Shown here: positions 2,700 to 58,309 of the stretch, one piece after another
Position numbering within the stretch: position 1 is the first letter of the stretch
Layout: every line of letters begins with the position of its first letter
Assembly (NCBI GenBank): GCA_003222675.1
Contig: QHWT01000062.1
Coordinates: 1,447 to 65,446, forward strand
Reading direction: 5' to 3'
Length of the DNA stretch: 64,000 nucleotides
DNA from: Acidobacteriota bacterium
Lineage (GTDB): Bacteria > Acidobacteriota > Vicinamibacteria > Vicinamibacterales > 2-12-FULL-66-21
The notes under the pieces: generated by a model
Databases searched by the model: none
Seen by the model: only the letters and a program-made list of their open reading frames with translations
What the model was told of the DNA's origin: nothing
Program-made: the position numbers and the translations under genes

Positions 2700-3475
2700 T
2701 CACGCGAAGTCTGCCCCGCCCAAGCGCGCAGCGCGAAGGCGGGCTTTCTGGGCGCGAGCTTCGGCCGGGCAAGCCAGCAGGGTCTGATACCCAACGCGAT
2801 CCTCCGGCCGCTCATATACGTCGGCGTCAGTGTCTCCAAGGCGTTCTTCAGAAGCTTCAAGCCATTTGAACGCCTGTTCTCTGTCCTCGATGCCCAGGTA
2901 CGCGTACGCGATCTGATAGGGCGAGTGGTATTGACCGGCGGGAACTCGTGTCATCTCCAGCACGATGCGGTTCGCAGTTGCGACGTCGCCCGACGTGTGC
3001 CAGGACAAACGTATGATCCAACTCCAGCGTCTTTCGCTCCTGCTCGATCGCTGCATCGTATTTTCGTTGGTACACGTACGTTCGGCCCATTTCGGCGTTG
3101 GTGTTCAAGGACAGCGGATCGAGTTCCAGCGCCCGTTTCACCTCTCTCGCCGCATCGTCGAGGCGCCCCATGGCGACAAAGTAATAGGAATACCAGTAGT
3201 GTGCTGTCCCGTAGCCGGGGTTCAGCTGGAGCGCGCGCTCGAATTCGGTGCGAGCACCCGACCAGTCCCAATCGAAACCGATTTTGTTCCGCGCCAGCGA
3301 CGCGTGCGCTTCCGCCAGTGTTGGATCCAACTCCAGCGCTTTCGCGGCGGCGGCTTTGCCCAGAGGGTACACGTCGATGGGTCGTACGTAAGCCCATGCG
3401 CCTGTTCCAGTAATACCGTCCCTTCAAATACGCTGTCAATTCACGCGTTCCCAGACCAAGTCGGTCGTCACCCAA
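2700..3475 (-). pseudogene. frameshifted, N-terminally truncated TPR-repeat protein remnant
   Basis: A TPR-like sequence runs through three minus-strand frames in turn. Frame 1 is ..AYLKGRYYWNRR (about 3390-3440). Frame 2 is ALELDPTLAEAH..ALQLNPGYG..ALELDP (2990-3372). Frame 3 is ..YQIAYAYLGIEDREQAFKWLE (2700-2990). No N-terminal effector domain is present upstream. Confidence 0.6.
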
Positions 3476-11434: not shown

Positions 11435-12484
11435 ATGCGGCGCATGCATCGACGCCGGTTCGTGCAGACGCTCGGCCTGGCCTCGATCGCTGCACACCTG
11501 CGGCTGCCGAGTCTTGCGGCGGCGCCCTCGCTGCTGAAGCCGAAGCGGCTCGCCGCGGGCCACACCGTTGCGCTGATCAGCCCGGCGAGCGCTACGTTCG
11601 AGTCGATTGAGGTGCGGATTGCGAAGGAGTCGCTCGAGGCCCTCGGCCTGACGGTCCGGCTCGGCGCGCATATGATGGAGCGCCACGGTTACCTGGGCGG
11701 CGACGACAAGGCGCGCGCGGCAGATATCAACGCGTTCTTCGCAGACTAGGAGGTGGCCGCGATTCATCCGATTCGTGGCGGCTGGGGCAGCAGCCGCGTC
11801 CTTCCGTATGTCAACTTCGACGTGATTCGGCGGAACCCGAAGATCCTGCTCGGCTACAGCGATATCACCGCGCTGCTGCTCTCGGTTCACGCGAAAACCG
11901 GCCTGATCACGTTTCACGGGCCGATCGGCATGGGACGCTGGGACGCGTTTTCCATCGACTACTACAAGCGCGTGCTGTTCGACGGCGAGCTCCTCACATA
12001 TCAGAACAAGCGCGATCTGTCGGATCGGAACGCCCTGACGCAGACCGAATTCCGGGTGCAGACCATCACCCCCGGAACGGCGCGCGGTCGACTGATCGGC
12101 GGCAATCTGACGGTGCTGACGGCCATCATCGGATCGCCGTACTTGCCCGAATGGGACAACGCGATCCTGTTCACGGAAGACGTCCACGAAGAACCGTATC
12201 GCATCGATCGGATGCTGACGCAGCTGAAGCTCGCCGGCGTGCTCAATCGCATCAAGGCATTCATCTTCGGGAGCTGCTCCGAGTGCACTCCAGGCGAGGG
12301 AAGCTACGGCGCGTTGACGCTCGAGGAGATTTTCAACGATCACATCAGGCCGCTGGGGATCCCGGCGTGGCAGGGGGCGATGATCGGTCATCAGCAGCCG
12401 CAGTGGACGCTGCCGGAAGGTGTGGAGGTGGAGATCGACGCCTCCGCCGGGACCATCCGGCTGCTCGAATCGCCTGTCGCCTAG
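11435..12484 (+). pseudogene. Tat-signal LD-carboxypeptidase (peptidase S66) interrupted by one in-frame TAG at 11747-11749
   Basis: ORFs 11435-11749 and 11753-12484 are in the same frame, separated only by TAG plus GAG. The joined sequence reads ..INAFFAD*EVAAIHPIRGGWGSSR... GYSDITAL (nucleophile Ser) and a downstream His and Glu are retained. Twin-arginine motif HRRRFVQTLG. Confidence 0.75.
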
Positions 12485-39360: not shown

Positions 39361-39463
39361 ACAAGGCCCCTTGCCGGAACGAGTGGCCGGACGGAGAGAG
39401 ACCCCAATCTAGGGCCGCGTGCGTCCGGAGTCAAGCCTCCTTCCTGATATAAGATCGCGGGTT

Positions 39464-41254
39464 ATGGAAACCGTCACCCTCACGATCGATGGCCGGCAGG
39501 TCACGGTGGAGAAAGGCAAGACTGTGCTGCAGGGCGCGATCGAGCACGGCATCAAGGTCCCGTACTACTGCTACCACCCGGGGCTCGAGATCGATGGGTC
39601 CTGCCGTGTCTGTCTGGTCAAGATCGAAAAGATGCCGAAACTGCAGACGTCGTGTTCGACGCTTGTGGCCGAGGGGATGGTCGTCTCGACCGAGGCGCCA
39701 GATGTCGTCGAAGCGCGCGCCAGCGTGCTCGAATTCCTGCTGATCAATCATCCGCTCGACTGCCCCGTCTGCGACAAGGGGGGCGAGTGTCCGCTCCAGG
39801 ACTTTGCGTATTCGTTCGGGCCCAACGAGAGCCGGATGGAATTTCCGCGCCGCGTCTTCGACGGGGAAGGCGTGAAGGCGGACGTCGACTTCGGGCCGAC
39901 GCTGATGCTGAATCGCAACCGTTGCATTCTCTGCACGCGCTGCGTGCGGTTCATGAAAGAGGTCGACGGCGATGCACAGATCAACATCGTGGATCGCGGC
40001 TATGGCAGTGAGATCGCGACGTTCCAGGACGAGGGGGTACACTCGCTGATCTCCGGCAACCTCATGGACGTCTGTCCGGTCGGCGCCATCACGACGAAGG
40101 ACTACCGGTTCAAGTCGCGGCCGTGGGACAACCCCGAGGCGATCGACACGATCTGCACGTTCTGCGAGCGCGGCTGCAATACGACGGCGTGGCTGCGTGC
40201 CAAGCCCGAGTGGGCCAAGGGCGCGCTCCTCGTTCGGACTACGCCTCGCCTCAATCCGGACGTCAACGGGTACTGGATGTGTGACATCGGCCGGTTCGAC
40301 TATCACTGGATAGAGGGAGACGATCGGCTGCACAGGCCGCTCGTGAAAATGGAAGCCGGGCTGCAGCAGCCCGCCGACTGGCGCGAAGCGACGGCGAAGG
40401 CCGCGGACCGGATCACAGCCGCCGGCACCGGATCGCTCCGCTTCCTCATTTCAGCGCACGCGTCACTCGAGGAGCTGTTCCTCATCGGACGGCTCGGCTC
40501 CGCGCTGGGCACGCCCGAAGACGGCGTGGCGATCAGCTGGCGCGCGCGCGAAAAACCCCAGCCGGCAGACACGAAGTTCAAGGTGCCGCCGATCGACGCA
40601 CCGAACGTCAATGGCGCCCGCGACATGGGCTTCCCGGTCAAAGCATCGTCGGACGGGCGTCCAGATATCTCGGCGTTCCGTCAGCAGGTCGAGCAGGGGC
40701 GCGTCAAGGCGTTGTTCGTGTTCGATCCCGGCCCGCCGGGATCGATTGGCGATGTGTCGTGGGTCAGCCAGGCGCGGGCGTCCGGCAAGCTGGCGCTGCT
40801 GATTGTCCAGGGAGCGCTGATTACGGATCTCGCGCGCGCCGCCGACATCGTGCTGCCGGGCGCATCCTCATTCGAGAAGGATGCGACTTACGTGAATTAT
40901 CAGGGCCGGGTGCAGGCCGCGTCGCGGGCGCTTCCGGCGCCGGGGGACGCGCAGGAAGACTGGCAGATCTTCGTGAACCTCGGCCTGGCGCTTGGGATCA
41001 CGCTCGGCTACACGGACAGCGCGCACGTGCGCGCGGACGTAGCCGCCGCGATGTCATCAAACGCGGCGTACGCCGGGCTGGCAGATCTGGCGTTTGCGCG
41101 GCCGGTGACGGCGCAGCACTGGCTGCAGGCGTCGAATCCGTCCGAGCGATGGAAGTGGGACGTGATGTTCCAGGATCTGCCGCCGGTGAAGTTCGCGGGA
41201 CGCCCGGACCCATCGTCGATCCCGACTGTGATTCCGCTGACCGAGCGCGACTGA
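39464..41254 (+). CDS. NuoG-like NADH dehydrogenase 75-kDa-type Fe-S subunit (orphan)
   Basis: N-terminal 2Fe-2S ferredoxin fold (CYHPGL..DGSCRVCLV), HPLDCPVCDKGGECPLQ, then CILCTRCVRF. Shortened molybdopterin-like C-terminus. Confidence 0.75.
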   Translation: METVTLTIDGRQVTVEKGKTVLQGAIEHGIKVPYYCYHPGLEIDGSCRVCLVKIEKMPKLQTSCSTLVAEGMVVSTEAPDVVEARASVLEFLLINHPLDCPVCDKGGECPLQDFAYSFGPNESRMEFPRRVFDGEGVKADVDFGPTLMLNRNRCILCTRCVRFMKEVDGDAQINIVDRGYGSEIATFQDEGVHSLISGNLMDVCPVGAITTKDYRFKSRPWDNPEAIDTICTFCERGCNTTAWLRAKPEWAKGALLVRTTPRLNPDVNGYWMCDIGRFDYHWIEGDDRLHRPLVKMEAGLQQPADWREATAKAADRITAAGTGSLRFLISAHASLEELFLIGRLGSALGTPEDGVAISWRAREKPQPADTKFKVPPIDAPNVNGARDMGFPVKASSDGRPDISAFRQQVEQGRVKALFVFDPGPPGSIGDVSWVSQARASGKLALLIVQGALITDLARAADIVLPGASSFEKDATYVNYQGRVQAASRALPAPGDAQEDWQIFVNLGLALGITLGYTDSAHVRADVAAAMSSNAAYAGLADLAFARPVTAQHWLQASNPSERWKWDVMFQDLPPVKFAGRPDPSSIPTVIPLTERD

Positions 41255-41259
41255 TTGCC

Positions 41260-41919
41260 ATGAATCAGAACGTAACGCTGCTGGCTGCCCTGGCCGCTGG
41301 CTTCCTGTCGTTCGTCTCCCCATGCGTGCTTCCGCTGATCCCCGGGTACGTGTCGTTCGTGTCGGGTGTGTCGCTCGAGGAGATGCGCGGCGAGTCGGCA
41401 GCGAAGGCGTCGCGCACCCAGGTCTTCATCACGTCGCTCGCGTTCGTGTTCGGATTCTCAATCGTGTTCGTCGCGCTTGGCGCGACCGCGACGGCCATCG
41501 GCAAGTTCCTCCTCACCCAGCTTCCGCTTCTCAGCAAGATCGCCGGCGCCGTCCTGATCGTCTTCGGCCTGCACACGATGGGCGTCTTCCGGCTGGCCTT
41601 CCTGGAGACCGAGAAGCGGATGCAATCGCAGCGAAAGCCGGCCGGTCCGTTCGGCGCGATCGTCGTGGGCATCGCGTTCGCCTTCGGATGGACGCCCTGC
41701 ATAGGTCCGATCCTCAGCGCCATCCTGACGATTGCGGCATCCAAGAACAGCATCTCCGAAGGGGTGATGCTGCTCGCTGTTTACTCGCTCGGCCTCGGGA
41801 TTCCGTTTCTGCTGACGTCGCTCGCGGGCGTGCTCCTGGTCGCGATCGGCCTGCTGATCTTCACGGGCCAGCTCACGATTATCACGCGCTACCTGCAGCC
41901 GTATCTGCCTACCTACTGA
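41260..41919 (+). CDS. ccdA: cytochrome c biogenesis thiol-disulfide transporter CcdA/DsbD-family
   Basis: FLSFVSPCVLPLIPGY motif, a second Cys in TPCIGP, and 6 TM segments. Confidence 0.85.
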   Translation: MNQNVTLLAALAAGFLSFVSPCVLPLIPGYVSFVSGVSLEEMRGESAAKASRTQVFITSLAFVFGFSIVFVALGATATAIGKFLLTQLPLLSKIAGAVLIVFGLHTMGVFRLAFLETEKRMQSQRKPAGPFGAIVVGIAFAFGWTPCIGPILSAILTIAASKNSISEGVMLLAVYSLGLGIPFLLTSLAGVLLVAIGLLIFTGQLTIITRYLQPYLPTY

Positions 41920-52878: not shown

Positions 52879-53478
52879 ATGTCGAGCGGACGCACATCGC
52901 ACGCGTGCTCAATCGTGCTGGCACTCGCGCTCGGCGTGGCAGCGTGCGATTCGAGTTCGTCAGACACGCCGTCGATCGAAAAGCAGGCGCCTCCACCGGC
53001 GGCCGCCCCGCCCCTCGCGCCTCCTGCAGCCGCGTCCCACGAGGGTGCGGTTATGCCTGCTGCAGCCGCGAATCAGTGGGAGACGCGCGCGCCGCAGCTG
53101 GGCGACGCCGACATTCCACCGCTGCCGACGGTGCCGTTCGCTGCCGCACGCCCGATGGAGGTCGTGCGCGCCGTGTACGTCTTTGCGGCAAAACATCCCG
53201 AGGTGCTCAGTCACGTGCCGTGCTTCTGCGGCTGCGAGAACCGCGGCCACAAGCACAACGACGACTGTTTCGTCACCGAACGCGACGCGAAGGGGCGCCC
53301 GACCAAATGGGAGCCACACGGTATTGGTTGAGGTGTGTGCCTTGACGTCGCGCGTGACGCGATGCAGATGTATTCGTCGGGCGCGGATGTCGCGTCGATC
53401 CGCTCCGCCGTCGAAGCCAAGTACCGCGCGTCCTTCCCGACAATGACCCCGACGCCTCCGGTTCCACGCGCCAAATGA
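52879..53478 (+). CDS. PCYCGC-motif lipoprotein, candidate selenoprotein (UGA 53329-53331 read as Sec)
   Basis: Lipobox LGVAAC and a PCFCGC motif. The conservative model ends at TGA 53331. The same frame stays open for 48 more codons (G-U-G-V-C-L-D-V-A..) and ends in an ATGA overlap with the next gene. See findings. Confidence 0.55.
53346..53364 (+). other. SECIS-like hairpin downstream of the in-frame UGA
   Basis: CGUCGCG-CGUGA-CGCGAUG forms a 7-bp stem including one G-U pair. The stem begins 15 nt after the UGA and the loop begins 22 nt after it. G is at loop position 2. Confidence 0.4.
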
Positions 53479-54992
53479 GCACCGCGACGGCCGACGCGTT
53501 TGCGCGGTTGTTCGAAGCAGTTCACGAAGGCGTCTACATCGGGACGATCGAAGGTCCCGGCACGGCGACGGTCTCGGCCAATCCCTATCTCAAATTGATG
53601 TTCGGCTTCGCGGCGGACACGCCGCAGGACGAAGTCCGGCCGTTCGAGCCGGAGCGATTCGTCGATCCGCAGGCGCGCGACGGGTTCGTGCAGCGTCTCG
53701 AGCGCGACGGGGCCGTCACCGACTACTTGATGCGGCTGCGCCGCGCCGACCGTGTGGCTATCTGGATCGAGGTCACCGCGCACGCGGAGAGGCAGCACGA
53801 AGGGAGCCTGCGCGTCGAAGCACTGATGCGCGATGTCAGCGAGCGCAAGCGGCTCGAGGACCAGGCGCGCGATCTGTACAATCAACTGCTGCAGGCGGAG
53901 AAGCTTGCCGCGCTCGGCCAGACGATCTCCGGCGTTGCGCACGAGTTGAACAATCCGCTCGCGACGATTCTCACGTGGGCTGAGCGGCTGTCGCAGCGTG
54001 ACGTCGACGATCAGACGAAGCGGGGCCTCGAAACCATCCTCAGCGAGTCGGAGCGCGCGGCGAAGATCGTGCGGAACCTGCTCACCTTCGCACGCAAGCG
54101 TCACACGACGCGCGCGATGGTGGATCTCAATCAGGTCGTACGCGAGACGCTCGCCTTGCGCTCCTACGAGCAGCGGCTGAGCAACATCAACATCCTGGAA
54201 GCATTGCCGGCGGGACTCCCCCTCGTGTTCGCTGATCCTCACCAGGTGCAGCAGGTGCTCCTCAACCTGATTATCAACGCGGAGCAGGCGATGCTCAGCG
54301 CGCATGGCCGCGGCACGTTGATCCTCCGCACGTGGCACGACCTCGACGTGGATGCCGTGGTCCTCGAGGTGAACGACGATGGGCCGGGTGTGCCGGAGGA
54401 AGTGCAGCCGCGTATCTTCGATCCGTTCTTTACGACCAAGGAGGTCGGCAAGGGGACCGGGCTAGGACTCACCGTCGTGTATGCGATCGTGCAGGAGCAT
54501 GGCGGCCGCATCAGCGTGAAATCGGAACCGGACTGCGGGGCGTCGTTTTACGTCGCGTTTCCCGTCGGCGACAGTCCCGTGAAGCCGGCGCTTCCACGTC
54601 CGCCTGACAGGGGCAGCGACGCGGCCGCCGGATCGGTCGTCCTCGTCGTGGAAGACGAAGCTGCGCTCGGCGCCGCGGTCGCGGAGTCTCTCGCCGATGC
54701 CGGGCTCGTTGTCGATCGCGCGGGCGACGGCGAAGAAGCGATCGAGCGCGTCAAGGGACGCGCCTACGATTTGATCATCTGCGATCTGAAGATGCCGCGC
54801 GTGGACGGCATGGCGTTCTATCGAATGCTGGAACGCGACGCGCCGGACATGGCGCGGCGCATCCTGTTTGTCACCGGCGATGTTGCCGGCACCGAAGCCG
54901 AGCGGTTCCTGGAGAACACAGGATGCCGCTGGCTGGCCAAGCCGTTCCGCCTCAAAGATCTGCTGAGAACAGCACGCGATATGTTGACCTAA
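53475..54992 (+). CDS. hybrid sensor histidine kinase (PAS - HisKA - HATPase - receiver)
   Basis: H-box AHELNNPL, N-box NLIINAEQA, G1 DDGPGV, G2 GTGLGL. C-terminal receiver VLVVEDE..DLIICDLKMP. Confidence 0.85.
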   Translation: MSTATADAFARLFEAVHEGVYIGTIEGPGTATVSANPYLKLMFGFAADTPQDEVRPFEPERFVDPQARDGFVQRLERDGAVTDYLMRLRRADRVAIWIEVTAHAERQHEGSLRVEALMRDVSERKRLEDQARDLYNQLLQAEKLAALGQTISGVAHELNNPLATILTWAERLSQRDVDDQTKRGLETILSESERAAKIVRNLLTFARKRHTTRAMVDLNQVVRETLALRSYEQRLSNINILEALPAGLPLVFADPHQVQQVLLNLIINAEQAMLSAHGRGTLILRTWHDLDVDAVVLEVNDDGPGVPEEVQPRIFDPFFTTKEVGKGTGLGLTVVYAIVQEHGGRISVKSEPDCGASFYVAFPVGDSPVKPALPRPPDRGSDAAAGSVVLVVEDEAALGAAVAESLADAGLVVDRAGDGEEAIERVKGRAYDLIICDLKMPRVDGMAFYRMLERDAPDMARRILFVTGDVAGTEAERFLENTGCRWLAKPFRLKDLLRTARDMLT

Positions 54993-55001
54993 GGCTCATG
55001 G

Positions 55002-55066
55002 CGCCGGGTCTAAAGACCCGGCCTACCATGCACAGCACTTGTAGGGCGGACCTTCAGGTCCGTCGT
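55002..55066. repeat. REP-like palindromic element (copy 2)
   Basis: GCGCCGGGTCTAAAGACCCGGCCTAC..TGTAGGGCGGACCTTCAGGTCCGTCG. It aligns with the reverse complement of 14573-14623. Confidence 0.8.
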
Positions 55067-55081
55067 CATGAGCCATGAGCC

Positions 55082-56008
55082 TTATCGCGCGGCCGCCACC
55101 TGCGCACCGGCCGCGAACCGCCGTTTCGGCATCGGCTTCACCGCCGCGGGTTTGTATGGGAGCACGACCGCCGGAACATCCGTCCGCACAGTGGCTCCCC
55201 CGGCCTCACGGGCCGATTTCGTCATGTTCAAACGCTTGATCGTCTGCTGGAATGAAAGGATCGCCGGCCGCAGAGCGCGCGCCGCGTCCTCGGCCGAGCC
55301 ATCCGCGCCCAGCGTGTTTCGCAGGCGCTGGATGGCGCGGGCATGGAGCTGCGAGACACGCGATTCGTTGACGCCGATCTCCGCGCCGATTTGTTTCATT
55401 GTCGCCTCGCCGTAGTAGTAGAGCGCGATGACCTTGCGCTCGCGCGGCGGCAGCGACGCGATGGCCGCGCGAATGCGATCGCGGACCTCCCGTTCCTCAT
55501 ATGCGCGATCGGGCGGCGGCGGCTCCGACGGCACGAGTGCAGCGGGCAGCGTCGAACCATCGAGGTTCTCGCCTGCCGAGAGGGGCGACGTGGATTCGAT
55601 GGTGTTGATGCGGACGATCGTTCGACCCAGGCGTGCCTCGTCTGAGCCGACGCGCGCGGCAAGGTCCGCGAGTGAGGGCTCGGCGCCAAGCTCACGGCGC
55701 AACTCTTCGCGCGCTGTCTCGAGCTCGCGCCGCTGCCGGCGCACGCCGCGCGGCCAGGCGTCGCGGCGGAGCGCATCGATCATGGCGCCGCGCACGCGGC
55801 GCTCGGCAAATGTCTCGAACTTGATGCCGCGCGCCTCGTCGTAGCGATACGCCGCGTCGATGAGGCCAAGCATCCCGTCCTGTACGAGATCCCCGAGCTC
55901 GATGGAGTGAGGCATCGACGAGGCGACTCGTCGCGCGAGCGATTCGACGAACGGTAGGCCGGCCGCAATTCGTTCACGCTGGCGGGCGACGAGGGGCTGA
56001 CGGTGCAT
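55082..56008 (-). CDS. FliA/WhiG-type (group 3) sigma-70-family sigma factor with about 75-aa C-terminal extension
   Basis: Region 2 is DLVQDGMLGLIDAAYRYDEARGIKFETFAERRVRGAMIDALR. Region 4 is ATMKQIGAEIGVNESRVSQLHARAIQRLR. AAGGAG lies 9 nt upstream of ATG 56008. Confidence 0.8.
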   Translation of the reverse strand: MHRQPLVARQRERIAAGLPFVESLARRVASSMPHSIELGDLVQDGMLGLIDAAYRYDEARGIKFETFAERRVRGAMIDALRRDAWPRGVRRQRRELETAREELRRELGAEPSLADLAARVGSDEARLGRTIVRINTIESTSPLSAGENLDGSTLPAALVPSEPPPPDRAYEEREVRDRIRAAIASLPPRERKVIALYYYGEATMKQIGAEIGVNESRVSQLHARAIQRLRNTLGADGSAEDAARALRPAILSFQQTIKRLNMTKSAREAGGATVRTDVPAVVLPYKPAAVKPMPKRRFAAGAQVAAAR

Positions 56009-56061
56009 GCCTGGGGTCTCCTTGGGTAGCTCGCCGTTATCGGCGACGACGCTGGCCAAGG

Positions 56062-56076
56062 GCAACGGTGATACCA
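56062..56076 (-). promoter_or_regulatory. sigma-54-type promoter candidate upstream of the sigma-factor gene
   Basis: The minus strand reads TGGTAT-CACCG-TTGC, with correct GG-N10-GC spacing. The -12 GC is 54 nt upstream of the ATG. Confidence 0.5.
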
Positions 56077-56264
56077 CGTCAAAAACGAACAAACAGCGAA
56101 CCGCAGCCGCCGCGCGATGCAGCCTCCTAAGTCCCTGATGTCGAACTAGTTAATTCCGTGTTGCGGCATGCAGGGTCGTAAAGGCGAGCGCATATTTCAG
56201 TTAGGCGCCGTCAATTTGTTGACGGCCCGAGGACCATCGTGACGGATCATTGACAGACATGGGC

Positions 56265-56313
56265 GCGTCAGATCTCGATTGTTCGAGTGACATGAAAAAT
56301 CGAGATCTGACGC
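56265..56313. promoter_or_regulatory. perfect 15-bp inverted repeat GCGTCAGATCTCGAT-N19-ATCGAGATCTGACGC
   Basis: Direct reading. It lies in a lower-GC 333-nt spacer, about 190-250 bp upstream of the candidate sigma-54 promoter and 29 nt downstream of the DHp-gene stop. Confidence 0.6.
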
Positions 56314-56341
56314 CAAGCTGGTCTGACCCCAAGCTGTCACC

Positions 56342-56569
56342 CTAACTCGAATGGAGGCGGATCTCGCGCGCGGTCGTCATCGCATCCAGTACGCTGGCTA
56401 CCACCTGGGCGGCGCGGGCACGGCTCATTTCGTCCGCCGCCTTGGATTCGAGCAATTCAGCGTTCGCGAGGATGATTCCAAGCTGGTTGTTCAGGCGGTG
56501 GAACAGCAGGCCGAGATCGGCCGGCTCGTTTGCGGATGCGCGGGAACGATCGTCGGCGGCGGGCATCAT
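56342..56569 (-). CDS. stand-alone histidine-kinase DHp (H-box) domain protein, 75 aa
   Basis: LLFHRLNNQLGIILANAELLE resembles the AHDFNNLLTVILGxAELL H-box helix. No ATPase domain is present. 4-nt overlap with the upstream HTH gene. Confidence 0.6.
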   Translation of the reverse strand: MMPAADDRSRASANEPADLGLLFHRLNNQLGIILANAELLESKAADEMSRARAAQVVASVLDAMTTAREIRLHSS

Positions 56570-56769
56570 GACGCTTCTTTGCGCGTGAGATCTCCCGAGC
56601 GCTCGGGTTCGCGCCAGAGCGTGTCGACGAAGATGCGCACTGAACCGCCGGCAGTCCGCACGTACTCGACCTTTCCGCTCGCGATCCAGTTATAAATGGT
56701 GCGGCGGCTGACACCCACCAGCTCGCACGCCTTCACGATGGAAATCGTCTGGCGATCAATCATCATCAC
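56566..56769 (-). CDS. excisionase/MerR-type helix-turn-helix DNA-binding protein, 67 aa
   Basis: IVKACELVGVSRRTIYNWIASGKVEYVRTAGGSVRI is typical of the HTH_17/excisionase family. Confidence 0.7.
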   Translation of the reverse strand: MMMIDRQTISIVKACELVGVSRRTIYNWIASGKVEYVRTAGGSVRIFVDTLWREPERSGDLTRKEAS

Positions 56770-56911
56770 TTCCCGGGCTCTCGCCCCCTGCTGTTCGTGA
56801 ACCTGTTATCGGAGTCGACTCGGCGGCTCTATAGGGTTTTGGACCGGCGGCTGGCGGCGACTGGCGTTGACCGCCGATCGCGTGGGTGTCAAAATACCGC
56901 CGCGCGACTAA

Positions 56912-58309
56912 ATGGCTGACACCACGAAACATCTGCTGCTCGTGGACGACGAGGCCGCACTGCGCGAGGCCATCGCCGAGCGACTCTCGGATTACGGCTT
57001 CGTGGTGGAGCAGGCCTCGAGCGGCGAAGAGGCGCTCGCGCGCCTCGCCGATTTCGCCTTCGACATCATCGTCACCGACCTCCGGCTCCCGGGCGTGGAC
57101 GGGCGCGCCGTGCTCGACGCCGCGGTAGAGCGGTACCCCGAGATCATCGCGATCATCATCACCGGCTTCGGGACGGTGAAGGACGCGGTCAACGCGATCA
57201 AGCAAGGCGCCGCCGACTTCATCACCAAGCCGTTCCAGTTCGACGCGTTACTGCACGTTCTCAACTCCGCGGTGGAACAGCGCCGGCTGCGATCGGAAAA
57301 CGCGTACTTACGATCGCAACTCGAGGAGCGCTATCGAATTGACGGCCTGATCGGGCACAGCCGCGTCATGCGCGAGCTGTTTCAGTTGCTCGAGACCGTT
57401 GCCGCGACGTCGAGCACCGTCCTGATCACTGGCGAGACGGGAACGGGAAAAGAGCTCGCCGCGCGCGCCATTCATCACAACAGCCCGCGCCGCACGAATC
57501 GCTTCGTTGCGATCAACTGCAGCGCCATTCCGGAGACGCTGCTCGAAGCCGAGTTGTTCGGTCATGTGCGCGGCGCGTTCACCGGCGCCGTGGGCACTCG
57601 CCAGGGACGCCTCGAACAGGCGCACAAGGGCACCCTCTTCCTGGACGAAGTCGGGACGATGAGCCCCGCGCTGCAGGCGAAGCTGCTGCGCGTGCTGCAG
57701 GAGCGCGAATTCGAGCGTGTCGGCGATTCGCACACGATCAAGATCGACGTGCGGATCATCGCCGCCACGCATTCCGATCTTGCGAAGATGGTGGCGGACG
57801 GCGCGTTTCGCGAAGACCTCTATTACCGGCTGAACGTGATCCCCGTGCAGCTCCCAGCGCTTCGCGAGCGGCGTGAAGACGTGCCGCTCCTCGTGCAACA
57901 TTTCCTGCAGAAGCTTGCGGCCGACCAAGTCCCGCCGCGCGTGGCGACGATGTCGCAGGAAGCGATGCGTCAATTGATGGCATACGTCTGGCCCGGCAAC
58001 GTGCGTCAGCTCGAAAACGTTGTCGAGCGCGCGCTCGCGTTCAGCCACGGCCGTCCGCAAATCGAACTCACGGATCTCGGGACAGAGATCCAGACGGTGG
58101 CGGCATCGACGAACGGCACCGAGCCGTGGTTTCCTGACGAAGGACTCGATCTCGAGCGGTACATGGAAGGCGTGGAGCTGACGCTGATCAAGCGTTCGCT
58201 CGAGCGTACGCAGGGTAACAAGGTGCAGGCTGCCAGGCTGCTGAACCTGAAGCGCACCACGCTCATCGAAAAGCTGAAGCGTCTCGAGCGTGGCCAGCCT
58301 GGCGCTTAG
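56912..58309 (+). CDS. sigma-54-dependent response regulator (NtrC family enhancer-binding protein)
   Basis: Receiver domain (LLLVDDE..DIIVTDLRLPG). AAA+ domain with GETGTGKE and GAFTGA. C-terminal Fis-type HTH. Confidence 0.9.
   Translation: MADTTKHLLLVDDEAALREAIAERLSDYGFVVEQASSGEEALARLADFAFDIIVTDLRLPGVDGRAVLDAAVERYPEIIAIIITGFGTVKDAVNAIKQGAADFITKPFQFDALLHVLNSAVEQRRLRSENAYLRSQLEERYRIDGLIGHSRVMRELFQLLETVAATSSTVLITGETGTGKELAARAIHHNSPRRTNRFVAINCSAIPETLLEAELFGHVRGAFTGAVGTRQGRLEQAHKGTLFLDEVGTMSPALQAKLLRVLQEREFERVGDSHTIKIDVRIIAATHSDLAKMVADGAFREDLYYRLNVIPVQLPALRERREDVPLLVQHFLQKLAADQVPPRVATMSQEAMRQLMAYVWPGNVRQLENVVERALAFSHGRPQIELTDLGTEIQTVAASTNGTEPWFPDEGLDLERYMEGVELTLIKRSLERTQGNKVQAARLLNLKRTTLIEKLKRLERGQPGA

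Follow-up and report, generated by a model that had tools for sequence, protein, structure and literature searches.

The 64,000-nucleotide stretch of the Acidobacteriota contig QHWT01000062.1 analysed here (hereafter the window) raises the question of whether a lipoprotein gene of the PCYCGC family ends at the TGA where gene callers end it, or whether this TGA is read as selenocysteine (Sec) and the protein continues. Read directly from the sequence, the open reading frame (ORF) at 52879-53331 encodes 150 amino acids whose last residues are ..KWEPHGIG, followed by TGA at 53329-53331; past this codon no stop interrupts the frame for 48 codons (GVCLDVARDAMQMYSSGADVASIRSAVEAKYRASFPTMTPTPPVPRAK), until a second TGA is reached at 53476-53478. 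The original prediction, made from the letters of the DNA alone, held that the first TGA is decoded. Our analysis agrees with it, as the open frame is there and its translation is homologous, in frame, to Cys-containing forms of the same protein. We consider it very probable that TGA 53329-53331 encodes Sec. Direct support comes from sequence comparison, which shows that the codon aligns with Cys or Sec, that the UGA itself is conserved, that the extension is constrained as coding sequence, and that a downstream hairpin is constrained at the RNA level, with covariation.

When compared with the Pfam model PF13798 (PCYCGC; gathering threshold 25 bits), the short ORF scores 50.4 bits over profile positions 49-106 only, the read-through product (with U written as C) scores 95.2 bits in a match that is continuous over positions 49-151 of 153, and the 48-residue extension alone scores 27.6 bits over positions 110-151. 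All three therefore exceed the threshold for family membership. The PC[YF]CGC signature of the family is present as PCFCGC, together with further Cys residues at C130 and C154, and the UGA takes the place of the first Cys of a C-x-x-C motif. A database search gave 700 homologues, and the alignment counts given below refer to the best 120 homologue clusters. Cys stands at the UGA position in 81 of these clusters, all of them full-length and with an invariant H-G-x-G-C-x-x-C-x-D-V. The full-length Cys homologues align end to end with the read-through product, and their ..IR..I..KY...TPTP matches the extension residue for residue. The C-x-x-C followed by an I-R...Y segment, which the original prediction had attributed to the family, is correct, and the comparison with homologues that it had proposed as a check came out in its favour. 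Invariant residues across the alignment are C115, C117, C119, H124, C130, H147, U/C151 and C154, in addition to the lipobox Cys.

In a second group, 38 of the best 120 clusters, the last residue falls at the codon that immediately precedes the UGA position. These clusters, which finish in ..HG-x-G at approximately 150 residues, include the NCBI-sourced entries P0014 and P0117. As judged from the alignment, they are gene calls truncated at the Sec codon, and constitute a systematic annotation error for the subfamily.

To follow the codon among relatives, a scan of species-representative genomes recovered 30 loci from the Acidobacteriota, mostly from metagenome-assembled genomes (MAGs) of Vicinamibacterales, the best of them 72% identical. 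TGA occupies the aligned codon in 25 of the 30, and in 24 it is followed by an intact and conserved in-frame tail of 44-52 codons; the remaining TGA locus (L028) carries a frameshift later in the gene. Three genomes (L002, L020 and L029) have TGC or TGT at this codon, as do the further loci L031-L033, while L030 is frameshifted upstream of the codon and in L026 the codon is not readable. The scatter of stop codons and frameshifts that the original prediction had named as evidence to the contrary was not seen in the relatives' extensions. The frameshifts in L028 (around 3453) and L030 (around 3115-3300) lie in long-read, long-contig MAGs (MFD assemblies) and affect both the PCYCGC gene and the neighbouring kinase; they are more likely to be assembly indels than marks of real pseudogenes.

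To broaden the sample and reduce its bias, metagenomic contigs were scanned with a degenerate pattern that fixed only features at the amino-acid level, as far as the hairpin's 5' arm, and placed no constraint on the loop, the 3' arm or any synonymous position. At least 119 contigs were found with TGA at the Sec codon, and nearly all (about 115) have an in-frame tail of 40-52 codons. Their GC content runs from 35% to 70%, which indicates that the Sec form is widespread and not peculiar to the window genome. In particular, the low-GC Sec forms L059, L086 and L126 (35-38% GC) possess Bacillota-like lipoprotein signals (..AAGCGSK..) with TGA at the same codon, and in low-GC sequence the hairpin has been rewritten by compensatory changes to TATTGCC-CGGGA-GGCAATA.

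The extension also bears the marks of selection expected of protein-coding DNA. Its GC content at third codon positions (GC3) is 0.77 in the Sec frame (37 of 48 codons end in G or C, as originally counted), compared with 0.60 and 0.57 in the other two frames. Over extension codons 14-33, comparison with the closest relatives gave a proportion of nonsynonymous differences (pN) of 0.14-0.16 and a proportion of synonymous differences (pS) of 0.42-0.67, and on these values pN < pS is the pattern of translated sequence. Codons 5-13 (D-V-A-R-D-A-M-Q-M, 53344-53370) behave differently: pS here is 0.15, versus 0.47-0.65 in the flanks, and comparison of the window with 24 relatives gives 0.00 for 14 of them. 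Such a collapse of pS is, from the comparison, the signature of an RNA element that overlaps the coding sequence.

This same segment contains the hairpin that the original prediction had likened to a selenocysteine insertion sequence (SECIS). It begins 14 nt downstream of the UGA, inside the coding sequence, and has a folding energy of -8.8 kcal/mol. Published criteria for bacterial SECIS (bSECIS) elements (PMC13188914) ask for a loop of 3-9 nt with G among its first two bases, usually followed by G or U, an upper stem of 4-16 bp, 16-37 nt from UGA to loop, and a minimum free energy (MFE) of -7.5 kcal/mol or lower. The window hairpin falls within all of these bounds, with a 5-nt loop of CGUGA (G at position 2, then U), 7 bp, 21 nt between UGA and loop, and the energy given above.

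Comparative data add considerably to this picture. Across 25 genomic sequences the predicted 7-bp stem is paired in 100% of cells; among the 96 distinct 48-mers from the metagenome scan all 7 pairs are kept in 94; and in the combined set, which comprises 118 distinct sequences and 826 cells, pairing reaches 99.8%. At three stem pairs both partners have changed: 17 sequences have C-G for G-C at one, and U-A for C-G is found at the other two, in 3 sequences and in 1, respectively. Two further pairs show single changes that preserve pairing. None of 500 shuffles reached the observed values, and controls in which the stem was slid along the alignment gave at most 70%. The loop is usually C-G-U-G-A, with CGGGA and AGGGU as rare variants. 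In six Cys-form genes, some of which encode the identical DVARDAMQM peptide, only 3-6 of the 7 pairs are kept, although with n=6 this is a small control. One of the Cys forms is instructive in that L002 (TGC; 3238-3285), 77% identical to the window protein, is nested among Sec forms and retains 6 of 7 pairs with a loop changed to CACGA. From its position and its sequence, L002 looks like a recent Sec-to-Cys (TGA-to-TGC) conversion with a decaying SECIS.

Several observations weigh against decoding of the TGA as Sec, and we set them out together. The first concerns the hairpin. RNAfold, run on the window sequence alone, prefers other structures, and for many relatives it favours a shifted register, so that only the comparative data single out the hairpin described above. 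The competing folds fared less well in alignment: the shifted register (a CGUC/GACG stem with loop GCGCGU, and a middle stem), favoured by RNAfold for many single sequences, is broken by natural variants that preserve the register of the predicted hairpin, and for the MFE hairpins specific to the window, at 53327-53346 and 53348-53386, pairing in relatives drops to about 70%. A lower stem joining 53335-53339 with 53365-53369 was likewise unsupported, at 84% pairing and with one of its pairs disrupted in half the sequences. Rfam, with which the window was searched, gave no match at the hairpin. Absence of an Rfam match is usual for bacterial SECIS elements.

The second concerns family assignment. 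The sole NCBIfam match of the window protein is NF041379 (the OS_HP4_CYCXC equivalog, 'CYCXC family (seleno)protein'), and at 67.5 bits the protein scores below the 90-bit cut-off of this curated selenoprotein model and so lies outside the equivalog. In the protein the match covers approximately 88 residues, in the model 78 positions. A further nine forms of the lipoprotein type, both Sec and Cys, scored 63-76 bits, likewise under 90, and scores in this range point to a longer sister subfamily rather than to the curated equivalog. By its sequence, then, the window gene is a PF13798 member within this longer sister subfamily, which is distinguished by a Pro/Ala tether and a lipoprotein signal. 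Annotation pipelines may truncate it because it falls outside the curated equivalog.

The third concerns the decoding machinery. Neither selA, selB, selD nor tRNA-Sec was found in the 64-kb window: ARAGORN and Rfam returned no tRNA or Rfam matches there, and the Pfam annotation of 40 window genes contains no SelA, SelB or SelD. In the 153 fetched relative and metagenome loci the same two programs gave nothing relevant, and neither tRNA-Sec nor selA, selB or selD was found there. The organism is presumed capable of decoding Sec by an indirect argument, namely that UGA, downstream frame and hairpin have been kept by selection across many lineages, which implies that the codon is decoded. Precedent for Sec exists at the level of the phylum: the Acidobacteria were credited in 2006 with 3 selenoprotein families and 4 selenoproteins, Occallatibacter riparius has 3 selenoprotein genes, and [NiFeSe] hydrogenases occur in Acidobacteriota MAGs. 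Our literature search found nothing on Sec use in Vicinamibacterales specifically.

How well do other explanations account for the same data? The one that survives best, though we hold it to be very unlikely, is that the UGA is recoded as Cys or Ser instead of Sec by an opal suppressor, either a tRNA-Cys(UCA) of the SelC* type or an allo-tRNA as found in Acidobacteria. Mukai et al. (PMC5389517) described opal suppressors of some anaerobes that are tRNA-Cys species resembling tRNA-Sec, as well as acidobacterial allo-tRNAs that could act as suppressors, and the aligned residue in homologues is indeed Cys. However, selC* was reported in that study from Firmicutes, Thermodesulfobacteria, Nitrospirae and Proteobacteria and not from Acidobacteria, and general suppression needs no position-specific hairpin that matches the bSECIS model. 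It also conflicts with the use of TGA as the main ordinary stop. Of 45 window genes 22 end in TGA, more than in any other ordinary stop, so the genetic code is not reassigned, and no other gene with an in-frame TGA was found in the window. PF13798 is, moreover, catalogued as a selenoprotein family.

Still less probable is that the TGA is a genuine stop, which would leave a truncated PCYCGC protein of 150 residues and make the next 143 nt either non-coding or part of a separate small ORF. The output of gene callers has this form, the 38 short database clusters (NCBI record P0014 among them) end there, a GTG at 53335 could open a small ORF, and the window contains no visible Sec machinery. Yet the truncated product would lose two invariant Cys and approximately 45 residues of a domain that is modelled as one compact unit, and the segment beyond the TGA is homologous in frame to the Cys forms, with pN < pS and stop-free conservation of the frame in 24 genomes and about 115 contigs. 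A restart codon is not conserved, as most relatives have ATC or GTC at 53335, and synonymous sites are frozen only over the covarying hairpin, at the distance expected of a SECIS. That the gene is a pseudogene, or that TGA stands for a TGC misread in sequencing or assembly, might be suggested by the single base that separates the two codons and by the frameshifted genes at the two long-read loci L028 and L030. This explanation, which we regard as barely credible, is effectively refuted by recurrence of the TGA: 25 species-level genomes, all independent, and at least 119 contigs drawn from many samples share it, with a frame downstream that is intact and under selection.

With Sec as the preferred reading of the codon, the expected course of synthesis is as follows. 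A ribosome arriving at UGA 53329-53331 would encounter the hairpin at 53346-53364, which would recruit SelB-GTP-Sec-tRNA(Sec), so that Sec would be inserted at codon 151 in place of termination. The dependence on SelB is itself a prediction. Translation would then continue for 48 codons to TGA 53476-53478 and yield a 199-residue precursor, composed of a signal peptide with lipobox Cys23, a Pro/Ala-rich tether, and a PCYCGC-family domain of approximately 115 residues. Within this domain C115-x-C117-x-C119, H124, C130, H147 and U151-x-x-C154 would form a cluster, with Sec standing where most family members have the first Cys of their C-x-x-C. Export and lipidation of the product are likewise predicted. 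By inspection only, V-A-A-C23 follows a basic n-region and a hydrophobic stretch and fits the lipobox pattern [LVI][ASTVI][GAS]C, a Pro/Ala-rich linker separates this lipobox from the PCYCGC-family domain in the ORF product, and PF13798 members have been described as lipoproteins (PMC13068155). The coordinates of the gene, its elements and its neighbours are collected in Table 1.

Table 1. Features of the predicted selenoprotein gene and its neighbourhood (positions in the window).
Feature	Position	Strand	Basis or remark
Full predicted selenoprotein gene, PCYCGC/CYCXC-family lipoprotein	52879..53478	+	199 sense codons plus stop; Sec would be codon 151
Predicted signal peptide and lipobox, ..LALGVAA-C23	52879..52947	+	Sequence inspection; lipobox Cys conserved in homologues (consensus ..AAC..)
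PCFCGC motif, Pro114 to Cys119, family signature	53218..53235	+	P114, C115, C117, G118 and C119 invariant in homologue alignment
UGA very probably read as Sec, residue 151; opens U-G-V-C motif (53329-53340)	53329..53331	+	Alignment with invariant Cys
C-terminal 48 codons of domain (GVCLDVARDAMQM...TPTPPVPRAK)	53332..53475	+	Pfam match, GC3, pN/pS, AlphaFold model of Cys form
Predicted SECIS hairpin, 7-bp stem CGUCGCG/CGCGAUG, apical loop CGUGA (53353-53357)	53346..53364	+	Folding energy, covariation, pS
Predicted true stop TGA, overlapping kinase ATG (53475-53477) as ATGA	53476..53478	+	Sequence; overlap (ATGA, TGATG or GTGA) or short gap in relatives
Hybrid histidine kinase (HisKA, HATPase_c, REC)	53475..54992	+	Pfam; N-terminal ~140 residues without Pfam match
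Divergent sigma-70-family factor	55082-56092	-	Conserved module
Small ORF	56342-56569	-	Conserved module
NtrC-type sigma-54 activator	56912-58309		Conserved module

As to what such a protein might look like, we considered the AlphaFold model of P0002, which is the nearest of the natural Cys forms, with 75% identity across the domain. The model is mostly helical with a small beta-hairpin, and is confident over the whole domain, including the part equivalent to the extension, at predicted local distance difference test (pLDDT) values of 90-98, and of 92-98 when the extension-equivalent segment is taken by itself. Since the extension-equivalent part is confidently modelled within the domain, truncation at 150 residues would cut through a single folded unit. 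A sequence search of the PDB gave no match, and Foldseek with the P0002 model found no significant PDB neighbour; the best hit, 2hl7 (the periplasmic domain of CcmH), reached E = 1.1 and is a weak lead. Most likely the protein is an exported and membrane-tethered thiol/selenol redox or metal-binding domain that acts outside the cytoplasm. The extra CxCxC together with the Cys/His cluster suggests metal binding no less strongly than disulfide exchange.

Immediately downstream lies the gene for a hybrid histidine kinase, and the manner in which the two genes join bears on the extent of the first. The extended frame stops in an ATGA overlap with the kinase ATG at 53475, as originally described, while the short gene model leaves a gap of 143 nt. 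The accompanying claim that this junction type is used throughout the window went too far, given that stop and start overlap at only about 4 of the 45 other genes. Among relatives several PCYCGC/kinase junctions are ATGA, TGATG or GTGA overlaps, and others are gaps of 5 to more than 100 nt. The kinase follows the PCYCGC gene directly in 29 of 30 genome loci at 54-95% identity, and also adjoins distant Cys-form homologues that are approximately 50% identical. More broadly, the module composed of the PCYCGC protein, the hybrid kinase, a sigma-70-family factor, a small ORF and a sigma-54 activator (53475-58309 in the window; loci L001-L034) is deeply conserved.

The kinase start lies in the ATGA overlap with no evident ribosome-binding site. 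Although it is unlikely, one can conceive of the selenoprotein gene and the kinase as a selenium- or redox-gated unit, in which translation of the kinase could depend on ribosomes that read through the Sec UGA. If this were true, the output of an acidobacterial signalling module would be tied to selenium supply, with the Sec/Cys-rich lipoprotein as a redox or metal sensor.

Two other genes of the window deserve mention. An LD-carboxypeptidase gene (Peptidase_S66 N- and C-terminal domains; 11435-12484, + strand) contains an in-frame TAG at 11747-11749 (..AFFAD*EVAAIHPIRGGWGS..), and its Pfam profile continues across the TAG, with N-domain positions 1-63 before it and 67-121 after. This could reflect a pseudogene, a sequencing error or amber read-through; Sec plays no part in it, the interrupting codon being TAG. 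At approximately 41260-41919 (+ strand) a thiol:disulfide transporter of CcdA/DsbD type is encoded (MNQNV..FLSFVSPCVLPLIPGY..), directly after a NuoG-like Fe-S/molybdopterin ORF at 39419-41254; gene picking based on GC3 had here chosen an ORF antisense to it.

These results have a practical side for annotation. A protein cut at residue 150 lacks a third of the domain and, with it, two invariant Cys/Sec ligands, and NF041379 does not rescue the truncated entries because the subfamily scores below its cut-off. They also place a probable selenoprotein in Vicinamibacterales-type Acidobacteriota, add a candidate SECIS with covariation support across contigs of 35%-70% GC, and link the family to a conserved neighbourhood of kinase, sigma factor and sigma-54 activator.

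Sec use in PF13798 and its mechanism were already known, and the window gene adds a member to the family and no new mechanism. Reviews list PF13798 (the OS_HP4 / CYCXC family) as a UxxC selenoprotein family; the name OS_HP4 is given by two reviews, and is absent from the main text of Zhang & Gladyshev 2007 and 2008. With the OS_HP4/CYCXC selenoprotein (PF13798; NF041379) the window protein shares the Pfam family, the PCYCGC/CYCXC signature, the UxxC motif and the presence of a single Sec, and in that family too the Cys-containing homologues are in the majority. The Sec of the window protein probably occupies the same column as that of OS_HP4, as the domain holds only one C-x-x-C. The window protein differs from OS_HP4 in being longer, in carrying a lipoprotein signal and a Pro/Ala tether, and in scoring below the 90-bit cut-off. 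Compared with bacterial SECIS elements of the Escherichia coli fdhF type and the bSECISearch consensus, the hairpin is likewise a stem-loop within coding sequence, close to the UGA on its 3' side, and it has a small apical loop containing G then U, a spacing of 21 nt from the UGA and adequate stability. In contrast to fdhF, its sequence is unrelated, neither a conserved lower stem nor a bulged U is evident, and its binding by SelB is a prediction. Finally, DsbA-, DsbG- and thiol:disulfide interchange-like UxxC families are listed among the known bacterial selenoprotein families, and the window protein resembles these exported thiol-oxidoreductases in its predicted extracytoplasmic location and in the replacement of the first Cys of CxxC by Sec, whereas the PCYCGC fold, as seen in the AlphaFold model of the Cys form, is not thioredoxin-like and the domain possesses an additional CxCxC and Cys/His cluster.

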